Source: Bacillota bacterium
GTDB lineage: Bacteria > Bacillota > Sulfobacillia > JAJZYS01 > JAJYTV01
NCBI GenBank assembly: GCA_021793645.1
Contig: JAJYSJ010000002.1
Location: 144,753-208,752 of the forward strand
Length of the DNA stretch: 64,000 nt
Direction of reading: 5' to 3'
A program made the translations under genes and the position numbers. Below the pieces are notes generated by a model. The model was given only the letters and a program-made list of their open reading frames with translations, was not told the origin of the DNA and did no database searches. This document shows, one piece after another, positions 7,961-42,556 of this stretch (position 1 is its first letter; each line of letters opens with the position of its first letter).

Positions 7961-8074
7961 CAACACCCGCGTTTCCTTTGCCACACGGCGGGTACACGCC
8001 TACCGAAACGCAAAGCGGAAGGCGTTCGGTGTTCCAGCAGCGCTCTACACTTCGCTTGGAGGCGTGGAGTCTCT

Positions 8075-8350
8075 TTAGGTAGCCCGCCCAAGGAGCAGGA
8101 CGCCGCCGATCAGGACGAAAGCGACGCCCGCGCCGATCTGAATGTAGCGTAGAGGGACAAGTCGCGTCAGCGCCTCGCCGAACACCACTCCGATCAACGA
8201 GGAGAGCACGAGGGCAAGACCTGCCGCTGCGAAGATCAGCAGCGGTGAGCGCGTGCGTGCGGCCAGCATCATGGTAGTGAGCTGTGTCTTATCGCCTAAT
8301 TCAGCCAGAAATACCAGTCCAAAGGTGACGGCAAAGGCCTTGAGATCCAC
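8075..8350 (-). CDS. UPF0016 / GDT1 (TMEM165) family half-size membrane protein
   Basis: ELGDKTQ motif with 3 TM helices. GTG start at 8350 with a GAGGGTGGAGG RBS. The N-terminal 23 codons of the track ORF were judged non-coding. Confidence 0.7.
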   Translation of the reverse strand: MDLKAFAVTFGLVFLAELGDKTQLTTMMLAARTRSPLLIFAAAGLALVLSSLIGVVFGEALTRLVPLRYIQIGAGVAFVLIGGVLLLGRAT

Positions 8351-23599: not shown

Positions 23600-23640
23600 G
23601 TTAGGTAAGTAACTTACGATTGTCAAGCGAATGTGTTACA
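23600..23640 (+). promoter_or_regulatory. candidate sigma-A promoter of the hxlR-like gene (TTACGA -17 nt- TGtTACAAT)
   Basis: Extended -10 TGtTACAAT and a weak -35 read directly, about 20 nt upstream of the GGAGG RBS. Confidence 0.3.
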
Positions 23641-23660
23641 ATGCCTGCGGAGGCGATCCC

Positions 23661-24008
23661 GTGCTCTACGACGTGATGTGCCCACGCTACGAGCAGGCCG
23701 CACAACTTCTTGGGAAAAAATGGACGAACCTCATCCTTCGGGTCTTGATGGGCAGGCCTCGCCGCTTCGGGGAATTCCGCCATCAGGTGCCGGAGCTCTC
23801 CGAGCGGCTGCTTTCGGAACGGTTGCGCGAACTTGAGGACGAGGGTCTCGTACGCCGCATCGTGGCGGACTGTCGACCGGTCCTGATCCTTTATGAACTG
23901 ACGCCGAAAGGGCACGAATTAGAGATTGTCGTCCAGTCGATTCAGGCATGGGCGGACAGGTGGATCTGCATCGAGGATGGGTATGCGGTGAAGGCGCGCA
24001 CCCGCTGA
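23661..24008 (+). CDS. HxlR-family transcriptional regulator
   Basis: HxlR-type wHTH (CPRYEQAAQLLGKKWTNLILRVL..PRRFGEF..). GTG start with a GGAGG RBS. Confidence 0.8.
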   Translation: MLYDVMCPRYEQAAQLLGKKWTNLILRVLMGRPRRFGEFRHQVPELSERLLSERLRELEDEGLVRRIVADCRPVLILYELTPKGHELEIVVQSIQAWADRWICIEDGYAVKARTR

Positions 24009-24057: not shown

Positions 24058-24133
24058 GCGCCCGTAGCTCAGTGGATAGAGCGCTTGCCTCCGGAGCAAG
24101 AGGCCGCAGGTTCGAATCCCGCCGGGCGCGCCA
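24058..24133 (+). tRNA. tRNA-Arg (anticodon CCG)
   Basis: 76-nt cloverleaf with a 7-bp acceptor stem GCGCCCG/CGGGCGC, D-loop AGCTCAGTGGATAGAGCG, anticodon loop cuCCGga, T-loop GGTTCGAATCC and an encoded CCA. Confidence 0.9.
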
Positions 24134-24169
24134 AGTTTGAAACCCCGCAACCCGCTCCAGGAGCGGATT

Positions 24170-24217
24170 ACAGAACCGAGGCACTCCCGAAGGAGTGCCT
24201 CGGTTTCTGCGCTTTTG
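24170..24217. terminator. hairpin terminator downstream of tRNA-Arg (GAGGCACUcccgaaggAGUGCCUC + UUUCUGCgcUUUU)
   Basis: Read directly; it lies between the convergent tRNA and RibD_C genes. Confidence 0.5.
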
Positions 24218-24310
24218 CGACGATGGAGCTGCAGGCCGGGCGGTTGGTGTGCCGTTGACCCGGTCGGACGCGCGACCGCAGCGAAGGCGCCACGGAGGGC
24301 GGACGTCGTC

Positions 24311-24928
24311 CTATGCGGGCCTGTGGTCTACCCGATAGCAGGCCAAAATGCTCCCCGAGCCTTCCGAAACCCGCGTGCTGAGCAACTTGAGCGACACCGC
24401 CGGCCGACCTTCGAAGAGCGGTGTGCCGCCGCCTCCGATCAGTGGGAAGATGGTGAACTGCAGCTCATCCACGAGACCGTGCGCGAGCAGATCGTTCCAT
24501 AGAAGGCGTCCGGAGAAGATGAGGATGTCCCGGCCCTCCTGCTGCCTGAGTGCGCCGATCTCCTTGCGTGCATCCGCCCGCCGCACGATGTGCGTGTTGT
24601 TCCAGCACCCGAGTTCATCCTCCGTCAGGTGGTCGGAGACCACCACCTTGTCGATGGGGTTCATTACATGCGCAATCTCGCGAAAGATGGGCCCGGCACT
24701 GGGGTCGTCCGGCACCGCGGACCAGTGGTCGCGAAACGCCACGAACGCCGCTTTGCTGTTTAGCACCAGTGTATCGGCGGACCGGAGTCGCTCGGCGCTG
24801 TAGCGGTGAAAGCTGCCGTCCTGCGCATAGTCCTCGTGCCAGTATTCGAACAGGTCATCGACGCTTCTGCCCGGACCTTCGTAGTAGCCGTCCAAGGAAA
24901 CCAGATTGTTCACCACGACCTTGCGCAT
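24311..24928 (-). CDS. dihydrofolate reductase-family protein (RibD C-terminal domain, PF01872-like)
   Basis: N-terminus [20 protein letters not shown] and a C-terminal GGGGTPLF motif typical of the RibD_C / YwjB family. Confidence 0.8.
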
Positions 24929-25084
24929 CTTGGTTCTCCTCTCGTTTTCGTACGACGCACTGGGGCGCCGTCACCACACCGTCGAACGGCCCAGAGGATT
25001 TCAACACGATGCGCATCCGTCGTGTGCCTCGGCATGCGGCCGGGACCCCGACCGTCGCTCCGAAGCGTGGGATGGATTCTGTGA

Positions 25085-26356
25085 TCAGTTGCGGTGGAGC
25101 GACTGCAGCCGCTCAGAGAGAAACCGCCGCTCCGCGTCGTTGCGCACGAGCTGCACGGCGCGACGCAAGGCGGAGGCCGCTTCGTCCGCGCGCCCCAACC
25201 GTTCAAGAAGCTCCGCCTTGATGGCGAAGAGATAGTGGTAGTCCGCGAGCCGGCCGCCCGCCTCGAGCGCCTCAACCTCCGCAAGGGCCGGCTGCGGTCC
25301 CTCCGATACGAAGACCGCCACCGCCCGGTTCAGTGCCACGACCGGGGAGGGCCAGAGCGATAGGAGACGGTCGTAGAGCAGCACGATGCGTGCCCAGTCC
25401 GTTTCGGTGTACGTCAGCGCCTCGGCATGGCAGAGCGCGATCTCCGCCTGCAGTCCGTAACGGCCAAGGGGGCCGGCGCGCGATGCATCGTCAACCAGCG
25501 TACGGGCTTCGCGGATCGCGGCCCGGTCCCACTTCGCGCGGTCCTGCTCCTCGAGGCGAAGCGCGGCGCCGGACGCGTCCACGCGGGTGGCGCGCCGTGC
25601 ACCCGTGACCAGCAGGAGTGCGAGAAGCGCGTGTGACTCCGGCTCATGCGGCATGAGCTCGGCCATGAGACGCGCAAGGTGGACCGAGTGGTCCAGCAAC
25701 GCATCGCGCGTCAGGGTGTCGCCAGATGGTGCCACGTGGCCCGCAGTGAACAGCAGATAGATCACGCCCAGCACGACGGCGAGGCGATCCGAAAGCTCAG
25801 CCGGATCCGGCATGGCGAAGGGGATTCGGGCCGTCGCGATCTTGCGCTTCGCCCGCGTCAGCCGAGCGCCCATCGTCGTGTCGGAAACGAGGAAAGCCCG
25901 GGCGATGTCCGCCGTAGAGAGGCCGCACACCAGTCGCAGTGTGAGCGCCATCTGCGCCTCCGGCGCCAGTGCGGGGTGGCAACAGAGGAAGATCAGGCGC
26001 AGCCGCTCGTCCGGGATCGCCGTCGCCGCCTGCGCAGACCGTGCACTTTCCGCCGTCCCCCCGTCGACCGCGGCAGTCTGCGCCTCTACGAGCAACGGAA
26101 GCTTCGACCGGAGCGTCGCCGCGCGCCGCACGGCGTCCACGGCCCGGCGCTTGGCGATGGTGGTGAGCCAGGCGGCTGCGTTCGCGGGGACTCCGTCCCG
26201 GGGCCAGGACTTGAGCGCCGCGGCATACGCCTCCTGCGCGCAGTCCTCGGCGAGGTCGAGGTCGCGCGTGATGCGCAGCGCAGCTGCAACGACCATCGCC
26301 CACGCGGCGCGGTGCGCATCCTCGAGCGCCCGCTCGATGTCAGACTGTCCGCTCAC
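25085..26356 (-). CDS. ECF-type RNA polymerase sigma factor with long C-terminal (TPR-like) extension (ECF42-like architecture)
   Basis: Sigma-70 region 2 (DCAQEAYAAALKSW..) and region 4 (LSTADIARAFLVSDTTMGARLTRAKRKIA), followed by a ~250-aa extension. GTG start just downstream of the YciI-like stop; the longer track ORF overlaps yciI and is rejected. Confidence 0.8.
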   Translation of the reverse strand: MSGQSDIERALEDAHRAAWAMVVAAALRITRDLDLAEDCAQEAYAAALKSWPRDGVPANAAAWLTTIAKRRAVDAVRRAATLRSKLPLLVEAQTAAVDGGTAESARSAQAATAIPDERLRLIFLCCHPALAPEAQMALTLRLVCGLSTADIARAFLVSDTTMGARLTRAKRKIATARIPFAMPDPAELSDRLAVVLGVIYLLFTAGHVAPSGDTLTRDALLDHSVHLARLMAELMPHEPESHALLALLLVTGARRATRVDASGAALRLEEQDRAKWDRAAIREARTLVDDASRAGPLGRYGLQAEIALCHAEALTYTETDWARIVLLYDRLLSLWPSPVVALNRAVAVFVSEGPQPALAEVEALEAGGRLADYHYLFAIKAELLERLGRADEAASALRRAVQLVRNDAERRFLSERLQSLHRN

Positions 26357-26681
26357 CGGCAATGGGCCGCACCTCCAGTCCGCCACCCCGCTGCAGAATC
26401 GGATTGCGCCGCGCGACGCGCAGGGCGCTGTCGAGGTCCGGGGCCTCGATGATGTAGACGCCGACAATGACCTCCTTGGCCTCGGTGAATGGCCCATCAA
26501 TGACGAGGTCGCCGCGTAGCGAAGTCGCCGTCGCGGCCGGCTCGAGGGCAAACGCCATGGACATTACTCCCTCGCGCTCAAGCTCGTCTGCGTGGCGGTC
26601 GTGCACCTCCATTTCCTCCACGGTGGCCTCGGCGGCGGCATCTGCGGCAGGGGCATAGAGCATGACCGCATATTTGGCCAT
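26340..26681 (-). CDS. YciI-like (YCII-related) domain protein
   Basis: 113-aa protein with a YCII-related fold pattern, co-oriented immediately upstream of the ECF sigma gene. Confidence 0.75.
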   Translation of the reverse strand: MAKYAVMLYAPAADAAAEATVEEMEVHDRHADELEREGVMSMAFALEPAATATSLRGDLVIDGPFTEAKEVIVGVYIIEAPDLDSALRVARRNPILQRGGGLEVRPIAGERTV

Positions 26682-26799
26682 ATTGATCTCTCCTTCCGTG
26701 AACGGCTCTCCCTATTCGTCGAAGGGACTCGGCGAAATCGACGCCCAGAATCGCGACATCCCGCATCGGCGACTTCGAGCGGTGGTCTCACTTTGCTCT

Positions 26800-26940
26800 A
26801 TCGCGCCTGCACGGGGTGGATCCGTTTTGGACCGTCGTTACCCCTCAAGTGGATCCCGTTTGGTCCATCGTAGCCAACGGTGGGAAACGACGGGGAAGCG
26901 TTGTCCCAAAACCGCTTCAGAAGGCGATGGCTAGCCTCCG
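26800..26940. repeat. copy C of the IS607/TnpB right-end (omegaRNA-scaffold-like) repeat, partial
   Basis: gggaaacgacggggaagcgttgtcccaaaaccgcttcagaagg matches copies at 31163-31320 and 36412-36552. It is preceded by an internal ~24-nt direct duplication (tggatccgttttggaccgtcgtta / tggatcccgtttggtccatcgtag). Confidence 0.45.
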
Positions 26941-27255
26941 CAAGGGGTCGGAGGGCGGCGATGTTCTGGAACTGCTGGGACATGAATTGCCATGCGAGTT
27001 CGGTCCGCTCGGTGCCCCGAGGCCCTCGCTGCCGAGGTGGCTGTATTCGACAACGGCGGCAGGCACCCCCAAGATGCCGCCGATCCTCTCCGCAACCTTC
27101 TCAGGCCCATCCGAGGCGAGGCTGACGTCGGGGCCATAACGCCACCCATTCGCGTCACCGCTTCCGGCTAATAAAGCGAGCGCAGAGTGGCCCTCACCGC
27201 CCACACCCGCTTCAGGCCATACTCGGCCAGCTACACCGGCGGTTCAGTTTCCCCA

Positions 27256-28305
27256 CTAGATCTCGGGACCACCGAAATCCACTTCCGCCTGCACCAGGCG
27301 CTGAGCGTCACTCAGAAAAGCCTGCTTCATCTGCTCGAAATCCAGCGGCACCAGCATAGCCACATCCTTGGGGTCGACGCGCTCGACCTGCTGCAGCGCC
27401 TTGGCGAACCAGCTCCGGTTGAAGCCGGGGTCCTTCGCCTTCGCCACTTCCATCAGCTTGTCGAGACCATACCTGACCTCAAGCATGTACACGTCAACGA
27501 AGTCCCGCGTCGTGGCGCGGCCGAACAGAGCTAGCGTCTTGTCCGCGGCGAGGTCCCGCAGAGACCGCACCGGCATGCCCTCGACTGTAGACTTGGACTT
27601 CGCGAGCTGGAACGGCGAGTCTTGCCCGATCTCCACCTTGATCCCGGCCACCCACATGCGCACGAACGACGGCCGTTCGTCGCTGGCACTCCGCTGCACT
27701 GAAAGGCCATCCTGCTTGCACGCCTTCGCAAACTCGTCAGCCGCATCCCCCACCCGAATCCCCAAACTGAAGAAATCCAGGTCGTCGGATCGGCGATGAC
27801 CAAGGTAGGCAGCCGCAAGCGCCGTTCCGCCAGCCAGTTCGAAACCGCGTTGTGCCAGCACTTGAGCGGCCACACGCAACACCCGGCGATGCTCGTCTCC
27901 AAGTACCAGATCGCGCCTGTCCTGCACGTCGGCCGCCTCCTTGCAGACCATGCTCCACAGCTTCGCCGCGCCCCCGAACAAGGGGAGTTGGTCCACGATA
28001 GGCGCCAGGGCGGCGAGATCGAGACGGCGCCAGTCGTTGGCGTTCCCTTCCAAAAGGATGGAAGTAACGGCTCGCCGCGCATCGGCGTCATCGTTGATCT
28101 CAATCGGCTTGGGCCAGGACCAGAACAGGCGAATGGACTCGGGCGGGACGGTGCCGCCGGGGATGGCGCGGAGGGCCGACGCGTCTCTCGCCACCTCTCT
28201 CGCCACCTCGCCGCACCTCCCTTTCGGTCCCTTTGCTCGAAGGTACCACATTGGCGCTACAGAGACCGCAGGAAGAGCCTCTGCTTCAGGCGATGCCCGA
28301 ATCAC
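27256..28305 (-). CDS. nucleotidyltransferase of the AbiEii/AbiGii toxin family (DUF1814) with N-terminal extension
   Basis: Motif ELAGGTALAAAYLGHRRSDDLDFF, characteristic of AbiEii NTases, sits at residues ~160-185. ~130 aa precede it. No AbiEi-like partner is adjacent. Confidence 0.7.
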   Translation of the reverse strand: MIRASPEAEALPAVSVAPMWYLRAKGPKGRCGEVAREVARDASALRAIPGGTVPPESIRLFWSWPKPIEINDDADARRAVTSILLEGNANDWRRLDLAALAPIVDQLPLFGGAAKLWSMVCKEAADVQDRRDLVLGDEHRRVLRVAAQVLAQRGFELAGGTALAAAYLGHRRSDDLDFFSLGIRVGDAADEFAKACKQDGLSVQRSASDERPSFVRMWVAGIKVEIGQDSPFQLAKSKSTVEGMPVRSLRDLAADKTLALFGRATTRDFVDVYMLEVRYGLDKLMEVAKAKDPGFNRSWFAKALQQVERVDPKDVAMLVPLDFEQMKQAFLSDAQRLVQAEVDFGGPEI

Positions 28306-28395
28306 GACCGGTGCCGCCGACCCCGACTCTTCAACCTACCCGTGGTCGAAACACAGCAAGTTTCCGAAGACATCGTAGCGGATGCGACCGTCATC

Positions 28396-28983
28396 CTACT
28401 CCCCGTTGGCCCCCTGACCACCGACCGCTTGCAACTCCCTGCGCATCAAGACGCGTGCCTCAGGCTTGCGTCGCCTGATCTCGACGAACTGAAGTTCTGC
28501 GAACATCCCTGTGGTGCCCGTATAGGACGATGACGCCGAGCGCCTGCGCACAGCGGGATCGCGTGGCACCCCCTCGATCGCAGACGCGCCGTGAGTGGCG
28601 GCAAGCTCGACTGCTGCCCGCAGAAGGCCCTTCGCGATGCCCTGCCCCCGCTGGTTCTCGCAAACGAAGAAGCAGGGCACCGCCCAGACCCCCGCGCGCT
28701 CGTCGATGGGCCCCGTGTCGCGACCCCGCTGCAGGCGCGGGTAGTCCTCGCGCGGGCCGAGCGCCGCCCAGCCGACCGGCTCGCCGTCCCTGTAGGCGAT
28801 CAGCCCCGGGGGGCGCTTGGAGCCCTCGATGAGCTCCTTGGCCCGCTCTCTGGCACTTGACGTCGACTTTGTTCCTTCGTCGCGCCACCACATGCACCAG
28901 CACGAGCGATTGGGTCCCATCTGCCGGCAGATCTGTGCGAAGTCCTCCCAGCGCTCCGGGGTCAGTGGTCTGATATCGAGCAT
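28396..28983 (-). CDS. GNAT-family N-acetyltransferase
   Basis: Acetyl-CoA binding motif (QRGQGIAKGLLRAAVELA) in a GNAT-sized protein. Start at MLDIRPLT; the upstream 49 codons of the track ORF were judged non-coding. Confidence 0.75.
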   Translation of the reverse strand: MLDIRPLTPERWEDFAQICRQMGPNRSCWCMWWRDEGTKSTSSARERAKELIEGSKRPPGLIAYRDGEPVGWAALGPREDYPRLQRGRDTGPIDERAGVWAVPCFFVCENQRGQGIAKGLLRAAVELAATHGASAIEGVPRDPAVRRRSASSSYTGTTGMFAELQFVEIRRRKPEARVLMRRELQAVGGQGANGE

Positions 28984-29290
28984 CACCTGCTCCCCTTTCG
29001 CCCTTTTGGTTCGCGAGTGCCCGTGCCGCCCCTCCCCAATTGCTGGGGAAACTCGAGCTTCCGTGATAGAAGTCAGTGTACCGGAGTGAAAGTTGGAGAA
29101 GATTCGCCGGTGGGCGTAGATCTTGGCCATGAATTGCTGGCTGAAATAGCGGCGGGTGGCGGCGGCCCGCTCGTGGACCCCCGGCCCGCACCCCCCTCGT
29201 TTACACCGCGATAAGGGCCGCAGGCAGGGTCCGGAAGGGGTATGAACAGTTCGCTTGAAACCGATTCAGACCTTATCTAAACTTATCACT

Positions 29291-29917
29291 ATGGAGAGAT
29301 ATGTTGGGATAGGCGAGGCAGCCAAAGCGTTAGGTGTATCCATCACGACGCTCAGGCGGTGGGAAGTACAGGGCAAGCTGATTCCCGAACACACGGCCGG
29401 AAGGCACCGCCGCTATGACCTGGCCAAGCTCAGGCCGGAGATGCACCGCAGCACTCCCGATGAGCGGCGGACGATCGCGTACGCCCGCGTATCCAGCCAC
29501 GACCAGAAGGACGATCTGGAACGGCAGAAGCAGGTTCTGGAGCTGTACTGCGCTCGCCAGGGCTGGACGTTCGAGATGGTGTCGGACCTTGGATCGGGGA
29601 TGCATTACCAGAAGAAGGGTCTCAGGCGTCTCCTCGGCGAAATCCTCGACGGCCACGTGAGCCGGTTGGTGCTCACCCACAAGGACAGACTGCTGCGCTT
29701 CGGCGCGGAACTCGTCTTCGCCATCTGTGAGGCCAAAGAGGTGGAAGTCGTCATCCTCAACCAGGGCGAGGACACAACCTTTGAAGAGGATCTGGCCAAA
29801 GACGTTCTGGAGATCATTACGGTGTTCTCGGCCAGGCTCTACGGACGTCGCTCCCGCAGGAACCAGAAGCTGCTCGACGGTGTGCGCAGGGCGGTCGAGG
29901 AGGCGCAGGAATGCTGA
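29291..29917 (+). CDS. tnpA: IS607-family transposase TnpA (MerR-like HTH + serine recombinase)
   Basis: N-terminal MerR-type HTH (YVGIGEAAKALGVSITTLRRWE) and a serine-recombinase catalytic region (IAYARVSSHDQ). Confidence 0.85.
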   Translation: MERYVGIGEAAKALGVSITTLRRWEVQGKLIPEHTAGRHRRYDLAKLRPEMHRSTPDERRTIAYARVSSHDQKDDLERQKQVLELYCARQGWTFEMVSDLGSGMHYQKKGLRRLLGEILDGHVSRLVLTHKDRLLRFGAELVFAICEAKEVEVVILNQGEDTTFEEDLAKDVLEIITVFSARLYGRRSRRNQKLLDGVRRAVEEAQEC

Positions 29918-31119
29918 TGGCGCACAGGATCGCACTCAATCCCAACCGAAGGCAGGCGACGTACTTCGCAAAGGCGGCGGGGACGGCGCGATTCGCGTAC
30001 AACTGGGCGCTTGCGGAGTGGGACCGTCAGTACACGGCGCACCGTGAGGATGCGTCCCTCCCTGCCCCCTCGCAGGGGGCCCTTCGTCGCCAGCTGAACG
30101 CGATCAAGCGTACGGAGTTCCCGTGGATGCTTGAGGTGACAAAGAACGCACCCCAGATGGCGATCATCCAGCTCGGACAGGCATTCCAGAACTTTTTCGC
30201 AGGTCGAGCGAGACGCCCAAGGTGCCGAAGGAAGGGCGTCGACGATCACTTCACCCTGACGAATGATCAGTTTTGTGTGGCGGGGCGGCGCATCCGCATC
30301 CCGAACCTCGGATGGGTGCGCATGCGTGAGAAGCTGCGCTTCCAGGGTAAGATCGTGTCGGCCACGATCTCCCGAAGCGCGGATCGCTGGTTTGTCTCCA
30401 TCACCGTGGAGACGGACCAGGCTCCGAAGCGTCCTGCAGAACACCTGGGCGCGGTTGGTGTGGATCTCGGCGTACTCACCCTTGCAACGCTCTCGACGGG
30501 GGAGCGGATCCCTGGTCCGAGGGTGCTCAGGAAGCGGGTTGGACAGCTTCGCCGCCTGTCGCGGAGTCTCAGCCGCAAGCAGAGGGGATCGAAGAACCGT
30601 GCCAAAGCGAGAGCCAAGCTGGCACGTCTTCATGCCCGGATCGCCGATATCCGGCTGGACTCCCTGCATAAGCTCACTTCGGACCTCGCGCGCCGCTTCG
30701 ATGTGATCGGCATCGAGGACCTGAACGTTCGAGGCATGGTGCGCAACCACCGCCTTGCCCGCTCGATCGCCGACATGGGCCTTCGCGAACTGCGCAGGCA
30801 GCTCGAGTACAAGGCCGCGCGGCGCGGAGCCGTCGTAGTGGTGGCGGATCGCTTCTTTCCGAGCAGCAAGCGCTGCTCTGCCTGCGGCTACATCCAAAAC
30901 GAGATGCCGCTGTCGGTACGCTTGTGGACATGCCCGGCTTGCCGCATCACACACGACCGGGACCTGAATGCGGCAGTCAACCTGGCCCAATACGCCGTGA
31001 GTTCCACGGTGTCTGCCTGTGGAGGGGAAGGCTCTGGCGACGGTCATCCGGCTGTAGCGAAACCAGCCCCGGCGAAACAGGAAGTTAGCGCCAAGATACC
31101 CTTGCGTAGTTTTGGATAG
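29911..31119 (+). CDS. tnpB: TnpB (OrfB, RuvC-like RNA-guided endonuclease)
   Basis: RuvC-I (GVDLGV), RuvC-II (IGIEDLNVRGM) and a C-terminal zinc finger (CSACGYIQN..CPACRITHDRDLNAAVNL). Confidence 0.9.
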   Translation: MLMAHRIALNPNRRQATYFAKAAGTARFAYNWALAEWDRQYTAHREDASLPAPSQGALRRQLNAIKRTEFPWMLEVTKNAPQMAIIQLGQAFQNFFAGRARRPRCRRKGVDDHFTLTNDQFCVAGRRIRIPNLGWVRMREKLRFQGKIVSATISRSADRWFVSITVETDQAPKRPAEHLGAVGVDLGVLTLATLSTGERIPGPRVLRKRVGQLRRLSRSLSRKQRGSKNRAKARAKLARLHARIADIRLDSLHKLTSDLARRFDVIGIEDLNVRGMVRNHRLARSIADMGLRELRRQLEYKAARRGAVVVVADRFFPSSKRCSACGYIQNEMPLSVRLWTCPACRITHDRDLNAAVNLAQYAVSSTVSACGGEGSGDGHPAVAKPAPAKQEVSAKIPLRSFG

Positions 31120-31162
31120 GTCTAACGGAACGGCGAGAGACATCCTGTGCTAGAAGCTCTCC

Positions 31163-31320
31163 GAGACACGCTTGCTAACGGTTTGCTAACGCTTTTTGAG
31201 AGAAACGGCGGCATACGGCGGGAAACGACGGGAAAGCATTGGCCCAAAAACCGCTTCAGAACGCCATTGCGGCAAGTCACGGGATACCACGGAAAGCCCT
31301 CTCCTTGCCTCCGGAGCAAG
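31163..31320 (+). repeat. copy A of the right-end / omegaRNA-scaffold-like repeat directly after tnpB
   Basis: ttgctaacgctttttgagagaaacggcgg...gggaaacgacgggaaagc..ccgcttcagaa..ggaaagccctctccttgcctccggagca, with structured stem-loops. It ends exactly where the partial tRNA-Arg copy begins. Confidence 0.5.
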
Positions 31321-31437
31321 AGGCCGCAGGTTCGAATCCCGCCGGGCGCGCCAAGTTTGAAGCCCCGCAACCCGCTCCAGGAGCGGATTACAGAACCGAG
31401 GCACTCTTGATGTAGTGCCTCGGTTTCTGCTCTTGCT
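31304..31437 (+). repeat. direct repeat of the tRNA-Arg(CCG) 3' half (anticodon arm to CCA) plus ~85 nt of tRNA-downstream sequence; candidate att site
   Basis: cttgcctccggagcaagaggccgcaggttcgaatcccgccgggcgcgccaagtttgaa[g]ccccgcaacccgctccaggagcggattacagaaccgaggcactc matches 24081-24189 with 1 mismatch. Homology continues through the terminator hairpin with a diverged loop. Confidence 0.8.
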
Positions 31438-31774
31438 AACGCTTTTTCTTGGTTCCAGTTTGGCGGTTTCCAGTTCGCGTGCCGCTGATCACTGCGTCCA
31501 GCCTGTTCGCTGCCTCACGTTGCAGGTTCGGTAGGACACGGCTGTATGTGTCCATGGTCATGTCGATACGGCTGTGGCCGAGACGCTCTTGGACGATTTT
31601 CGGGTGGACGCCCTCGGCCAGCAGAAGAGTCGCCATCGTGTGGCGCATGTCGTGTGGCCTGAAGTGCGATAAGCCAGCGCGCTTGAGTACGCGGGCGTAG
31701 TCGCGACCCTCCTGGACGCGCGGCGCGGGGGTGAGGCGAAGACCGTGATGGCGGATCTGGCTCTGAGCCTTCAC
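31436..31774 (-). pseudogene. tyrosine recombinase/integrase C-terminal fragment (5'-truncated)
   Basis: Only the last ~110 aa of a phage-integrase catalytic domain are present (HDMRHTMATLL ... LGHSRIDMTMDTYSRV, i.e. the His/Arg/Tyr region). No N-terminal domains lie upstream. Confidence 0.7.
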
Positions 31775-32021
31775 GAGAGCTCACTCCTCTTCAGGAACCC
31801 TTGGCCTCTACCGGCTGCGACCGAGCGCAGGCGTCCAAGGAGGAGCGCAGCCCGGGGGAGCCCGCAAGTGAAGCGAGCGGGTGCGGCTCCGAGGCGAGAC
31901 CTCCTTGACGCGAGCGAGAAGGATGCGGCACCGAAACGCAACTCGTGCAGCGTTTCGGGCAAACGGCACAGCAAAACAAAAGGCCGACGGAGTGCTGCTC
32001 CGGCGGCAGTCGGGACGGAAG

Positions 32022-32384
32022 TTAGAGATCGATCTCGGGATCTCGCTTTGTGGGTACCAGCTTCTCCAGCCTCGCATGCAACGGCGGCACATCTTTCGTC
32101 GCAATCTTCCACACGAGATCAAGCCGAACACTGGCATATCCGTGAATGAGCGTGTTGCGAAGATCCTTAACCACCCGCCACGGTATCTCCGCGTAGAGGG
32201 ATTGGTAGACTGGGCTCACTTTCGAGCCGGCCTCTCCGATGATCTCCAGTGCTCGGATCACCGCGTCCTGGGTGCGCTCATCGGCCTCGAACGCGGGCCA
32301 ATCGAACCCGGCAGTGTATCGTTCCACCTTGGCACAGGCGTCGCGCATGTTGCGGACGTACATCTCATCAGTGTGTAGCGACAT
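32022..32384 (-). CDS. hepT: HepT-like toxin (DUF86, nucleotidyltransferase substrate-binding/RNase domain)
   Basis: R-x4-H-x-Y motif (RNTLIHGY) in a 120-aa protein overlapping the mntA-like gene. Confidence 0.8.
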   Translation of the reverse strand: MSLHTDEMYVRNMRDACAKVERYTAGFDWPAFEADERTQDAVIRALEIIGEAGSKVSPVYQSLYAEIPWRVVKDLRNTLIHGYASVRLDLVWKIATKDVPPLHARLEKLVPTKRDPEIDL

Positions 32385-32682
32385 AGACGACCCTCCTGCG
32401 TCGGAGCACGTCCTCGGCGATGTATGGGCTCAGGGTGCTCTTCTCGATGAGATCGACCTGACGGTGGAACACCTCGTCCTCTAGCGCATGCTTCATCCTA
32501 ATGAAATCAAAAAGGCTCTCCACAGGGCTATCCTGCTCGAAGTCCACCAGTACGTCGACGTCGCTCTCTGCGGTGAAGTCATCGCGGAGGACCGAGCCGA
32601 ACAGGGCCAACTCCCGGACCTTGAAACGCTGGCACACCTGGGCAAGATTGGCCGCGTCCACTGCGGTCTGCACTCCCTCCAC
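32368..32682 (-). CDS. mntA: MntA-like minimal nucleotidyltransferase antitoxin
   Basis: NTase fold motif GS-x10-DxD (LFGSVLRDDFTAESDVDVLV). GTG start with a G-rich RBS; the longer track ORF is rejected. Confidence 0.7.
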   Translation of the reverse strand: MEGVQTAVDAANLAQVCQRFKVRELALFGSVLRDDFTAESDVDVLVDFEQDSPVESLFDFIRMKHALEDEVFHRQVDLIEKSTLSPYIAEDVLRRRRVVYVATH

Positions 32683-33327
32683 GATGCTTCCCCCCCCTTG
32701 GCCGCAGTATAGCATTGGTCCCTGGATGACGCATAAGTGCGGGAGCACGGGACATGACGATCGCCCTCCGCTACATTTGCGCAAAGCGTTTGGCCACTGG
32801 CTCACCTGGATGCAGCACGGTGCTGATCGGGACGAGGCTCTCGATATCGTTGAGCACCAAGCGGCCGTTAGGAAGCCGCCCGAAGTTTTCGGGGATGGCG
32901 TCGCCCACGCCGTCAGGCACGGCATGCTCCAGGCCTGCCGATCAGGGCCGCGAGCTTCTTAACCGCGGCGACATGAGCTGCCGCGCGAGGCGACGGCTCT
33001 TACCGGAACCCGTGGAGCCGACCAGCAGGGTGTGTTCGTCTCTCGTTGTGACCCAGTCCGTGGTGCCCGCGCGGCCGACGAGGACGCCGCTCTCCTTGGC
33101 GCCCGGACGCCAGGCGTTGAGCGTCCGCGTCATGTCGCCGGCCGTGCGCCTGTGTGCGGTGCCGTACTCGCCCTTGCCGGCTGCCTTGGGGCCGCCAGAT
33201 GCGACAGGGCTGGAACCACTCGCCAGCCGCCAGTTCCAAGCGAAACTCCGGTGCGTACGGCAGCCTCGACTTCGGCATCCTGGACGTCCTCCTCTCGATC
33301 TCCTAGACGCACGCCCGTGGGCCTTTG

Positions 33328-33368
33328 GGGACCCGCTCCGGAGCGAGGAAGGGGGCAACCTTCGGTTT
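33328..33368. repeat. 41-bp sequence forming a perfect inverted repeat with 42516-42556 (gggacccgctccggagcgaggaagggggcaaccttcggttt)
   Basis: Exact reverse-complement match read in both places. It contains the internal palindrome CCGCTCCGGAGCGG. Confidence 0.8.
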
Positions 33369-33499
33369 CCCCCTCGGACCCTCTTCCGTCCGGATGTGTA
33401 TCAACACATCACATCCCGGAACCGCCCACTCTCTCCCCAAGCGTTGCCTAGTTTCCAAAGAGTTCAGACTGTCCGCCTTACCGGAGAAAGCTCAGAAAC

Positions 33500-34295
33500 G
33501 CCCCAAAAGGCGATCGTTCCTATCGACCTGACGCCACCCATCGTGCAGGGGACAACCAACATCGCCCCCAATGCTAAGGGCTGGTTCCGCACGGACGTGA
33601 CCGTCGCGTGGAGCGCGACCGATCCGCCCTTGATCGACGGGCACGCGGGCTCGGGAGTGGCAGAGGTCTCGCCTCCGGTGACCATCACCCAGGAGGGCAA
33701 GGGCATAACGGTCACCGGACAGGCGACCGACAATGCTGGCAACGTCGGAACGGGCGAAATCTCCCTGAACATTGACAAGACGCCGCCTACGATCACCATT
33801 AGCGAACCCCAGTGGGGCAGCTATCTCGACGACCAGAACCTCACCCCATCCTTCTCGGCAGCCGACAGCCTCTCGGGAGTCGATACGGTGCAGGCGAGCG
33901 TCTACGGTCAATCGGTGACAAATGGCCAAACGATCCAGCTCTGGCAGCTCCCCCTCGGACAGGTTCCCTTCACGGTGACCGCCTCCGACAATGCCGGCAA
34001 CATTCCCAGCCAGACTGTCACATTCACGGTGACCACGAGCCTCGCAAGCTTGGAGGGCCTTGTCGGACAGTTCACGTCGATGGGGCTCATCACGGGCCAT
34101 GGGTTGGCCGAAAGTCTGACCGCAAAACTGCACGCAACCGAGGCGGCTCAGTCTCGAGGAGACTTGACGACGGCAGCGAATCAACTTGGTGCGTTCGTGA
34201 ACGAGGTTAACGCGCAGACGGACAAGGGAATCGCATCCGAAGCCGCAGCGGTGCTCCTGCGTGACGCGCAATATGTGCTCAATACCTGGGAGTGA
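33500..34295 (+). pseudogene. 3' fragment of a surface/cell-wall-associated protein gene (Ig-like repeats + C-terminal FIMAH-like domain)
   Basis: The downstream part of ORF 32754.. encodes repetitive beta-rich segments (TVTGQATDNAGNVGTG..FTVTASDNAGNIPSQ) and a helical tail (LTAKLHATEAA..LGAFVNEVNAQ). The upstream ~250 codons are R/P-rich non-coding-like sequence with no plausible start or signal peptide. Confidence 0.4.
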
Positions 34296-34858
34296 TAGAC
34301 CTCGTGGATATTCAGGCTGAGGGTAGCCCCCACAGGCGAACCGACCGCTGGGCAGTCCGCTCACTGTGGTTCGTCCTGCTAGCGTTGGCCGGATTCACCG
34401 CGTGGAGCTATGCGGAAGGCGGTTTGGTACCTGCGACGAGCTTTGCCGTAGGCGTACTGGTCGTCTGGATCCGGGGATTCCTGCAGAACGCTGTAGTCTT
34501 TGGCATCCTCTCACTGGCGCTTTCGGCATGGCCGGGAGGGCGTTCGTTCTGGCTTGGCACCACGGTGTTGTCGGTTCTCACGGCCATCCCCGTAGACTTC
34601 TACAACGCCGCGACAACCTCGTTCAACAACATCGCTGCCTCGCCGTTCTTCTCCCCCTTCACCCGTTTTCTTCTCTTGCACAGCTGGCTTGAGTTCGCTG
34701 CGTACGTCCTCCTGCTACTCGCCGTGACCACATGGGTTACGCTGTTGTACTTCCCTAAACTCCGCGGCTGGCGCTTTGCCGTCTTCTGGGTGGTGACGGT
34801 CGCCTCCGGCCTGGCGCTTCCCGCCGGGAGCTTCTGGCATGCAGTGCGACCTGGTTGA
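34292..34858 (+). CDS. hypothetical membrane protein (4-5 TM)
   Basis: Hydrophobic ORF overlapping the stop of the preceding fragment. No recognised family; start codon uncertain. Confidence 0.4.
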   Translation: MIDLVDIQAEGSPHRRTDRWAVRSLWFVLLALAGFTAWSYAEGGLVPATSFAVGVLVVWIRGFLQNAVVFGILSLALSAWPGGRSFWLGTTVLSVLTAIPVDFYNAATTSFNNIAASPFFSPFTRFLLLHSWLEFAAYVLLLLAVTTWVTLLYFPKLRGWRFAVFWVVTVASGLALPAGSFWHAVRPG

Positions 34859-34897
34859 GCAATGGTTCGCCGACGGCGGGTGGACAAGTACATGGCG

Positions 34898-35110
34898 CTA
34901 GTGGACGATGACTGCCCTCCCCAGTGCCAGCGCGTCGTCGATGCCCTTCCCCTCCTTCCATGGGGCCGTTAGCGCCCGCACTCCGAACACCTGAAGCGCC
35001 TCCCGAAACTCGGCGAGGTTGCGCTCCACCGCCCTGCGCGTCTCCTCGCGCTCGTCCTGGTCGAAGGCCAGAATGACACGCTCGGCACCGCTCTCCTGCA
35101 CCACCGGCAC
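34898..35110 (-). pseudogene. Toprim-domain (primase-like) gene fragment
   Basis: VILAFDQDEREETRRA ... GKGIDDAL resembles the Toprim DxD and GKDWND region of DnaG-like and plasmid/phage primases. Only 70 codons. Confidence 0.35.
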
Positions 35111-35119
35111 GCCGATCTG

Positions 35120-35923
35120 CTGGGCGCGGCCACGCTCACTGCGGGGCTCGCTTGTCTGCTGGCGGCCCTGGTAACAGCCGGTCAGGGATGGGGCCAGCCC
35201 CGTGTTCTGGAGCTAGTCGCGGCCTCCGCCGCACTCCTGGTGGTGTTCTGGAGGATTGAGGCTGCCGCTGACAGGCCGATGCTGGATCCTAGGCTGTGGC
35301 GCCGCCCCGTGTTCGTGGCGGCGACCTTGGCCGCCCTGTTCACTGGACTCTCGGTGATCGGCCTCATGAGTTACCTGCCCACCGTGCTGGAGCGGGTGAT
35401 CGGCCTGACGCCGTGGGCGACAAGCCAGCTGTTCGCGCTCTGGGCCGGCACGTCGTTCGTCGCCACCATGTTGGCCCGCCGACGCGGGTTCGGCCTCCAC
35501 GGTCACCGCAGCGTCGTTGTCGGCCTCGCCGTCTCGGCTGCCGGGGATCTCGCCTTGTGGGGCTTGACTCGGAGTGCCGGCGTCTGGCACCTCATTCCGG
35601 GTCTAGTGGTCTCGGGCGTCGGTTACGGCCTACTAAACGCCGTGATCGGGCGACTCGCCCTGGAGAGCGTCCCGGACCGCGGCAGCACAGGTTCGGGAGT
35701 GAACAATGCTACCCGCTACATCGGCTCGGGCATCGGCGTCACGCTTCTGATGGCGGTAAGCCGTCCCTCCGTCGGGCCCGCGGCCACGATGGTGCACGAC
35801 CCGAATCTCGCACTCGTCATCGGCGCCGCCATCGCCGTCCTTGGCGCGGTGTCGATCGCCACCGTGCGAGACACGCCACAATCCGTCGTACTTGCCGCAC
35901 AGGCCCAGGCTCCTAATGACTGA
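35120..35923 (+). pseudogene. 5'-truncated MFS (DHA2/EmrB-like) transporter gene; only the C-terminal ~6 TM helices remain
   Basis: The reading frame continues upstream of the annotated M without any start and abuts the Toprim fragment. The C-terminal half of a 14-TM drug-efflux-type MFS is recognisable. Confidence 0.5.
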
Positions 35924-36411
35924 CGGGCGAAGGTCGTCCAGACACGGGGACCCTCCCGCCGCGCGCCCCCAGGCGTATCGTCCCGGCTATTGCTCGCAAC
36001 GAATGCGCGCGCTATGGCCAGGCCCCTGCGAGTCGCGAAGGTCGCGTAGGCCCGTATGGCGAGGGTCCCCATGGCCTTCACCTTGACCTACACTGCGCAG
36101 CCAGGCTCACGGCGTTGGGAATCTGGGTGAAGCCGCCGGCCAAGCGTAGATCCGTACTCGGCGCAAAGAACACAGCGCGTTGCGGTTCGTCTGGTAGCAC
36201 CGCACCACCCCCTGACAAAAAGAAAGCCGGTACCGCCGACGGCAGGTGCCCGGTACTAATAGCAGCTTTCGAAGAAGAGATGCCCCTCACACCGCTTCAG
36301 GAAATTTCCGGATTGCCGGTGTGCGGAACTCCCCGTCGCACCCGTCTGGGGCCCCACGGATAAGCAGAGTTCGGAGCCCATCGAGGACCGAAGCTGGAAA
36401 CGCCTCAAGGC

Positions 36412-36552
36412 GCATTTGCTAACGCTTTTTTTGAGAGAAACGGCGGTAAGTAGCGGGAAACGACGGGAAAGCGTTGTCCCGAAACCCGCTTCAGAAGGGC
36501 GTTGCAGCAAACTGCAGGATGGCGCGGAAAGCCCTCTCCTTGCCTCCGGAGC
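36412..36552 (+). repeat. copy B of the right-end / omegaRNA-scaffold-like repeat (orphan, no adjacent tnpB)
   Basis: tttgctaacgctttttttgagagaaacggcggtaagtagcgggaaacgacgggaaagcgttgtcccgaaacccgcttcagaag...ggaaagccctctccttgcctccggagca aligns with copy A over ~140 nt. It overlaps the 3' end of the disrupted RibD_C gene. Confidence 0.5.
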
Positions 36553-37384
36553 AGCCGCTGGGATAACCGGGACCAGTCAGGAGAACTACTCCCAGGGTCT
36601 TTGCACCCGTGACACATTCCCCGGGCTTCCCTTGTATGGTGATTCCGGAGAGCTTGGCTCCGGTGGTTCGAGACGATGTTGGTAAGGCGCTTGGAAGAGG
36701 GGTTAGGGGGGAACCGAAAAAGGTGTCCCCCCTCCCGCGGGCCGCGGCCAACGGAATATCCAGCCAGGCAGACACGGCTTCTTCGGAATCTCCGCCCTTC
36801 AGGGCGGGGAGGTTCAAATGGATCTCATCGAGGAGCCCTGCTCTGAGGCACTGCTGGGCGACGTCTGCCGATCCGACCGCAATGGTGCGTTCGCCGGCGG
36901 CGCGTCGCGCCAGTTTGAGTGCGCTCTCTAGCCCATCCGTCACGACAGTCCCGCCGGTGCCAGGTCCCACCCAACGCTGGGGCGGAGTGTGCGTGAGCAG
37001 GAAGAATGGAGCGCCGCTTGGGTGGTGTCCTCCCCATCCGTTGGCGATATCGAACGTGCGCCGACCCGTGAGGATCGCCCCGCAGTCGAACATCTCCCTC
37101 ACCCCTTACAGGCTGCGTTCCGGCGGTCTGACGCGGTTGTCATCACCGAGACGCCGCGTGCCGGCTGTCCACCATGCGAAGGGCTTGGCGCCACCGTCGC
37201 CCAGCGGATTGTCCGGACCATCATTCGGGCCGGCGACGAATCCATCCAAAGACACTGTCAGGTCCACCACGACCTTGCCCATGTTGCCCCTCCTCACCTC
37301 CGAGCACCTAGCGCCCTCTCGGGCGGTCCAGGATCCGGCATTCGGCTTGCTTGCGTGCTGGCTTTGGCCGATGCGCTTGCACAT
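36491..37384 (-). pseudogene. disrupted dihydrofolate reductase-family (RibD_C) gene: in-frame TAA after codon ~92 and altered C-terminus
   Basis: The N-terminal part (MGKVVVDLTVSLDGFVAGPNDGPDNPLGDGGAKPFAWW) and the continuation (..FDCGAILTGRRTFDIANGW..GGTVVTDGLESALKLARRAAGERTIAVGSADVAQQCLRAGLLDEIHLNL) are in the same frame, separated by a single TAA (37106-37108). The expected RibD_C C-terminus is replaced where repeat copy B begins. Confidence 0.6.
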
Positions 37385-42515: not shown

Positions 42516-42556
42516 AAACCGAAGGTTGCCCCCTTCCTCGCTCCGGAGCGGGTCCC
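42516..42556. repeat. second copy (inverted) of the 41-bp repeat, abutting the truncated istA
   Basis: aaaccgaaggttgcccccttcctcgctccggagcgggtccc is the exact reverse complement of 33328-33368. Confidence 0.8.

Follow-up and report, generated by a model that had tools for sequence, protein, structure and literature searches.

Known islands at tRNA genes and the present locus

Many genomic islands of the Islander type integrate around the tRNA anticodon: the anticodon-centred ('A') class of attP accounts for 2083 of 3919 islands (Williams 2002; Hudson, Lau and Williams 2015, PMC4383910). Of the 3919, 125 belong to tandems with at least two members and 4 to tandems with at least three (PMC4383910). 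In streptococci, the integrative and conjugative, integrative and mobilisable, and cis-mobilisable elements (ICE, IME and CIME) decay to integrase-less forms and accrete at one site, as described for ICESt1/ICESt3 (Pavlovic 2004; Bellanger 2011; PMC5704250). In the tycheposon islands of Prochlorococcus, successive tRNA integrations push older elements inward, and fragmented integrases and extra partial tRNAs are found (bioRxiv 10.1101/2020.12.28.424599). Here, we analysed a tRNA-Arg(CCG) locus in a stretch of 64,000 nucleotides of contig JAJYSJ010000002.1 (the window), from a Bacillota metagenome-assembled genome (MAG). A preliminary description had reported that the tRNA 3' half is directly repeated further downstream. 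In the reading that we consider likely, two or three integrative elements entered the anticodon stem-loop of this tRNA gene one after another by a tyrosine integrase, and the tandem array that they formed has since decayed.

The locus resembles the Islander islands in that element sequence regenerates an intact tRNA, a tRNA 3' copy of the same orientation starts from the anticodon stem-loop, the tyrosine integrase gene runs towards the 3' end of the tRNA, and tandem arrays are documented. It differs from them in its last tRNA fragment, which is 15 nt long. Where each member of an Islander tandem has its own integrase and fragment, a single integrase fragment was found here for three segments. 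With the ICESt1/ICESt3-type CIMEs, the locus shares the loss of integration genes, the retention of att sites, the stacking at one target gene and the hybrid internal att junctions. The streptococcal systems, however, integrate at the 3' end of genes for proteins or tRNAs and are associated with conjugation, whereas no transfer genes were seen here. Small adaptive or defensive cargo, integrase fragments and partial tRNAs are common to the locus and the tycheposon islands, but the host belongs to another phylum, the Bacillota (Thermaerobacter), and no replication or packaging module was seen. An IS607-family element in the locus is a typical passenger, with TnpA, TnpB and ends common to copies elsewhere, and has no part in the repeat. 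The locus is best called a relic tandem array, which works like the known tRNA islands and lacks an intact integrase in every segment.

The tRNA-Arg(CCG) gene and its direct repeat

The window contains one tRNA gene, found by both ARAGORN and Rfam. The gene and the two repeat copies are:

24058-24133 (+): intact tRNA-Arg(CCG) (ARAGORN; Rfam tRNA, 69.3 bits), putative integration target (B plus the reconstituted 3' half)
24084-24214 (+): repeat copy 1, attL-type, with the core O (anticodon stem-loop), the remaining tRNA, a terminator hairpin (24174-24205) and a truncated P' arm
31304-31434 (+): repeat copy 2, with the core O, the tRNA 3' half and the terminator; putative centre of an attP-like P-O-P' junction between tandem elements

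The two copies are identical at 125 of 131 bases (BLAST E-value 6e-55). The anticodon stem begins with tRNA nucleotide 27, and so does the repeat; copy 2 comprises tRNA nucleotides 27-76 and 81 nt downstream. The mismatches are at 24142, 24187, 24188, 24191, 24193 and 24211; only one lies within the first 103 nt, and four of the six fall in the terminator hairpin, in its loop and upper stem. A 32-nt piece of the repeat gave no match in 100 shuffles. The intact tRNA and a direct repeat beginning at the anticodon arm, as reported in the preliminary description, were thus confirmed, with a length of 131 nt and six mismatches. The description had also called the repeat unusually long for an att core. 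The length stands, but it is not that of a long core: both copies carry the core together with an element-derived P' arm, which explains why the homology reaches 131 nt.

The att-like sites and the three segments

Immediately left of copy 2 we found a module of ~135-170 nt. Searching the window with the anticodon arm and the 15-mer adjoining copy 2 revealed a second copy of the module (36371-36538, 83-84% identity, E=2e-30) next to a 15-nt core, and a 55-nt module remnant is present just past the YCII gene; neither site had been noticed in the preliminary description. The features around the core are:

31134-31303 (+): P-arm module of the internal junction, with two tandem TTGCTAACG at 31172 and 31183; clear homology to the other copies from 31169
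31433-31447 (+): P'-arm motif TTGCTAACGCTTTTT, overlapping the integrase stop codon and conserved in the attL of the related contig L001 (L001 position 172)
31436-31774 (-): integrase remnant int', C-terminal Phage_integrase (Pfam); only 31442-31717 is homologous to integrases
36371-36553 (+): distal P-arm module and 15-nt core, with one TTGCTAACG at 36416 and the core CTTGCCTCCGGAGCA at 36539-36553; probable right end of the array

With copy 1 and the remnant, these sites border three segments:

24215-26931: element E1, with RibD_C 24311-24928 (-), an extracytoplasmic function (ECF) sigma factor with DUF6596 25085-26362 (-), YCII 26340-26681 (-) and the 55-nt P-arm remnant 26877-26931
26932-31303: element E2 (cargo to 31133), with an AbiEii-like nucleotidyltransferase 27256-28206 (-), a GNAT gene 28396-28983 (-) and the passenger IS607
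31435-36538: element E3 (cargo and debris 31775-36370), with int', HepT 32022-32384 (-), MNT 32368-32682 (-), a Big/FIMAH-domain protein to 34295 (+), an open reading frame 34292-34858 (+) and a truncated major facilitator superfamily (MFS) gene 35240-35923 (+)

In the 64 kb, exactly four copies of the 9-mer TTGCTAACG are present, against 0.15 expected. All four sites (31172, 31183, 36416 and 31433) have one orientation and are confined to the att modules, on both sides of the core. L001 has them at corresponding places, as does the contig L093 with one mismatch. Their position and conservation make TTGCTAACG a candidate arm-type integrase site. The junction boundary, where ...GGAAAGCCCTCTC is followed directly by CTTGCCTCCGGAGCA, is identical at 31.3 kb and 36.5 kb of the window and in L001, each time with the module directly left of the core. 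Beyond 36553, that is after 15 nt of anticodon arm, the sequence is unrelated, and a native distal flank (B') was not detected in the window by sensitive blastn.

In the preliminary description, the two repeat copies had been taken as the attL/attR pair of one island. Copy 2, however, consists of P arm, core, P' arm and int'. Since the motifs flank it on both sides and the integrase 3' end abuts it, copy 2 is to be read as an internal attP-like P-O-P' junction between E2 and E3, not as attR.

The module was also examined as a possible structured RNA. It had no Rfam match at E<=1, and RNAalifold with the three module copies gave an unfavourable covariation term of +3.2 kcal/mol and many broken pairs, so that this reading was ruled out as having no support.

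The same element and its empty site in related genomes

A search of public genome contigs with the module returned one match, the contig L001 from a related Bacillota MAG; the module was absent from viral contigs (two patterns) and from JGI metagenomes. L001 is thus the only other genome with the module. Its order is tRNA-Arg(CCG), the same terminator and TTGCTAACGCTTTTT, a 230-nt int remnant, RibD_C, sigma factor, YCII, the module, a tRNA 3' half and a different flank. The three genes are 93.7% identical to 24304-26778 of the window, and over these 2.5 kb E1 is orthologous to the single L001 element. A true attR of the form P-O-B' is found at L001 3408-3667, where the flank diverges soon past the tRNA end. 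When the right and left ends of the L001 element were joined to a virtual attP, this corresponded to 31120-31450 of the window, with 84.5% identity in the P arm and 90.5% in O-P'. An alignment of the L001 attL with both window copies showed that in copy 1 the arm motif and the int remnant are deleted directly after 24214, and it is at this deletion that the homology of the two copies ends.

In L096, a JGI metagenome contig, the tRNA is joined directly to the distal flank of L001 (L096 4291-4474 corresponds to L001 3768-3585, 77% identity), and the neighbouring protease is 86% identical to that of the window. L096 is, by this alignment, a classical empty site for the RibD_C-sigma-YCII element E1; the comparison of L001 with L096 gives the empty site for E1 only, not for E2 or E3 of the window. 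The empty tRNA-Arg site that the preliminary description had proposed to look for in a relative therefore exists, for E1. Its proposal of one or more integrative elements at the tRNA, possibly in tandem, agrees with this empty site and with the single element of L001, but the array extends further than it had assumed, to 36553.

L093 and L094 have the same P' arm and integrase behind the tRNA. L094, like L001, has only an integrase remnant; in L093 the reading frame covers at least 176 amino acids, including the Arg-I region. The L093 integrase (~300-560) is missing ~26 nt near its 3' end compared to the window copy, which alters the frame past the catalytic Tyr. The distant relatives L005-L008 have the tRNA and no module, and in relatives of 75% identity no synteny with the window was found downstream of the tRNA.

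Two further observations concern the neighbourhood of the tRNA. The independent metagenome contigs L004 and L095, from related populations, both have their position 1 within 1 nt of the repeat boundary (tRNA nucleotide 26/27). These contig ends fit a structural polymorphism at the boundary and were not used as support. An HxlR gene (23631-24008, +) lies between an HtrA-like protease gene and the tRNA; it is present in L004-L008 and absent from L093-L096, where the gap between protease and tRNA is ~150 nt.

The integrase remnant and its relatives

The remnant int' corresponds to the last ~75-90 of the 380-440 residues of full-length relatives, about 22% of the gene. It retains the HxxR motif, the His and the catalytic Tyr. 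Since Arg-I and all upstream sequence are gone, int', judged from its residues, cannot be a working recombinase on its own. The protein is annotated in NCBI under a Thermaerobacter sp. MAG, and an exact-protein look-up found int' and TnpB only in the same assembly and no record for the HxlR protein.

A first search for homologues of int' returned only proteins of up to 189 amino acids, and the full-length relatives were obtained instead by retrieving related loci. We collected 80 metagenomic relatives with an alignment of the fragment, most of which have 370-460 amino acids from stop to stop. In 29 of the 80, a tRNA is encoded on the opposite strand less than 600 nt from the integrase stop codon, in the convergent arrangement of the window. 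Five loci (L029, L040, L042, L043 and L045) have a second tRNA copy that starts at tRNA nucleotide 31-32, and in two of them, L042 and L043, a full-length integrase gene stands beside the tRNA. Fragments of the C-terminus alone are common in this clade on long contigs, including complete genomes. One such case is L029, where an 83-codon remnant (7998-8249) lies beside a tRNA-Val of which nucleotides 32-77 are repeated 6.2 kb away. Decay seems to end repeatedly in a relic integrase 3' end beside a tRNA gene.

When the window was searched by tblastn with nine full-length relatives, no other fragment of the int' family came up, and the region 24215-31303 contains no integrase.

The IS607 element

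One complete mobile element is present in E2:

~29236-31133: IS607-family element, complete, with tnpA 29291-29917 and tnpB 29911-31119; ends from the alignment with L091 and L092

L091 and L092 contain IS607 copies in unrelated contexts, L092 being the copy of the MAG of L001, whose tRNA-Arg locus has no IS607; in L091 the next host gene begins 35 nt after the tnpB stop codon. The left end lies near 29236-29238 and the right end at 31133 (...GGTCTAACGGAACGG), 14 nt past the tnpB stop. TnpA is a serine recombinase with MerR-type helix-turn-helix and resolvase domains. TnpB has the OrfB_IS605 and Cas12f1-like TNB domains and homologues of 70-81% identity across many phyla, for example in Ectothiorhodospira and Thermomonas.

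The preliminary description had placed the right end of IS607 directly at the partial tRNA copy. The two independent IS607 copies set it 170 nt upstream, and the stretch between (31134/31169-31303) is present without IS607 at 36371-36538 and in L001. The flanks of IS607 show a weak resemblance to the distal P arm at 36.3-36.4 kb, where no insertion interrupts it, and suggest that IS607 simply inserted into the distal P arm of E2. IS607 is a passenger and unrelated to the repeat. The guide-side flank of the element would be 31134-31149.

How the array may have formed

From the known mechanism of such islands, the attP of each element would consist of a P arm (the ~135-170-nt module), the anticodon stem-loop as core and a P' arm. 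The P' arm would comprise the tRNA 3' half, the terminator and one arm motif, and would run straight into the 3' end of the integrase gene. Each integration would rebuild the tRNA from the copy of the element, and newcomers would push older elements away from the tRNA. In the resulting array, copy 1 would be attL (B-O-P'), copy 2 the P-O-P' site between neighbours, and 36371-36553 the P-O site at the end. Decay may then have deleted the integrase genes of E1 and E2, cut that of E3 to its last ~22%, shrunk the E1/E2 junction to 55 nt and removed the displaced native tRNA fragment, and IS607 would have landed later in the distal P arm of E2. The presence of E1 alone in L001 could be explained by recombination between directly repeated P-O modules. 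As there is no intact integrase in the window, the array is probably inert.

Several points weigh against a tandem array. The distal site (36539-36553) shares just 15 nt with the tRNA and is followed neither by the displaced tRNA 3' half nor by a native flank of the L001/L096 type, so that a later deletion must be assumed. The border between E1 and E2 is represented by the 55-nt remnant, and it is from position and conservation that TTGCTAACG is assigned its putative role as arm site. An intact integrase of the int' family is absent from the 64-kb window and no element is a complete island. Finally, the contiguity of 33.4-36.6 kb depends on the single MAG contig, an independent assembly ending at ~33374.

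Other explanations of the repeat were weighed against the tandem array. A single 7.2-kb island, with 24084-24214 as attL, 31304-31434 as attR and the integrase fragment derived from an unrelated or second element, is unlikely. It would account for cargo-like genes bracketed by two direct repeats, but a true attR is P-O-B', while copy 2 is followed by an element-type P' arm and int', as is the intact tRNA in L001, L093 and L094. The bracketed segment has no integrase, matches the L001 element over its first 2.7 kb only and has a P-arm remnant (26877-26931) in its interior, and there is a further P-O site at 36.5 kb. Still less likely is a RecA-dependent segmental duplication, in which the attL and attR of a single ancestral element underwent unequal crossing-over and the cargo was then replaced. 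The same P-O-P' junction would then be expected without a new integration, and int' at 31.4 kb and the int remnant of L001 indeed look like one lineage, with 89% identity and nearby truncation points. However, the three segments share no cargo, which would require wholesale gene replacement in two copies, and the P arms differ by 12-17% as compared to 6% for the shared E1 genes between genomes.

It is very improbable that the repeat and the module are products of IS607, either as its right end or as a scaffold of the TnpB guide RNA with the anticodon arm as guide or target. The module does lie downstream of tnpB with the anticodon-arm sequence adjoining, but the three IS607 copies, each in a different context, are homologous only up to 31133, and at 36.4 kb and in L001 the module is present with no IS607. 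The arm motif is also found on the far side of the tRNA copy, and neither Rfam nor covariation supports a structured RNA in the module. The decayed tandem array is therefore the reading that we retain.

There is a small chance that the integrase-less segments are still alive, with a complete att architecture whose cassettes are excised, shuffled or mobilised in trans by an integrase encoded elsewhere or incoming. If so, the tRNA-Arg locus would serve a thermophilic member of the Bacillota as a rack on which toxin-antitoxin, defence and regulatory cargo is exchanged. Tandem accretion of tRNA-targeting islands is already-known biology, and the locus is an ordinary and well explained example of it, with modest practical value and no new biological question opened. 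As a clean, dissected case it shows that behind a long repeat at a tRNA gene there may be an attP-like junction internal to a tandem array and not an att core, which should help island-calling software and annotators. It also supplies candidate attP arms and the candidate arm motif TTGCTAACG for an integrase clade specific for tRNA-Arg(CCG); for Thermaerobacter few genetic tools exist.

Cargo and composition of the segments

The cargo named in the preliminary description and the C-terminal integrase fragment at 31436-31774 (-) were borne out by Pfam, which identified HxlR, RibD_C, the ECF sigma factor with DUF6596, YCII, AbiEii, GNAT, tnpA and tnpB of IS607 and the integrase C-terminus. The AbiEii-like nucleotidyltransferase of E2 (27256-28206, -) has no recognisable adjoining AbiEi partner. 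In E3, the truncated MFS gene (35240-35923, +), upstream of the distal module, matches only the C-terminal half of the Pfam model. To the right of the distal site, a RibD_C-like (dihydrofolate-reductase-family) pseudogene (36790-37384, -) has an in-frame stop and a truncated C-terminus; no similarity between it and the RibD_C gene at 24311-24928 was detectable.

A 41-nt exact inverted repeat with a palindromic core, GGGACCCGCTCCGGAGCGAGGAAGGGGGCAACCTTCGGTTT, is located at 33328-33368 (+) and 42516-42556 (-). The independent ENA contig L002 stops at ~33374, just past the first copy. Either GGGACCCGCTCCGGAGCGAGGAAGGGGGCAACCTTCGGTTT is a small repeat resembling the repetitive extragenic palindromic (REP) type, or the contiguity and orientation of 33.4-42.5 kb are uncertain.

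The GC content is only mildly lowered between 28.8 and 32.7 kb (0.59-0.64, against 0.652 for the whole window). Within this stretch, the HepT and MNT genes of E3 (32022-32682, -) form a toxin-antitoxin pair, and MNT matches the PADLOC candidate PDC-S09.

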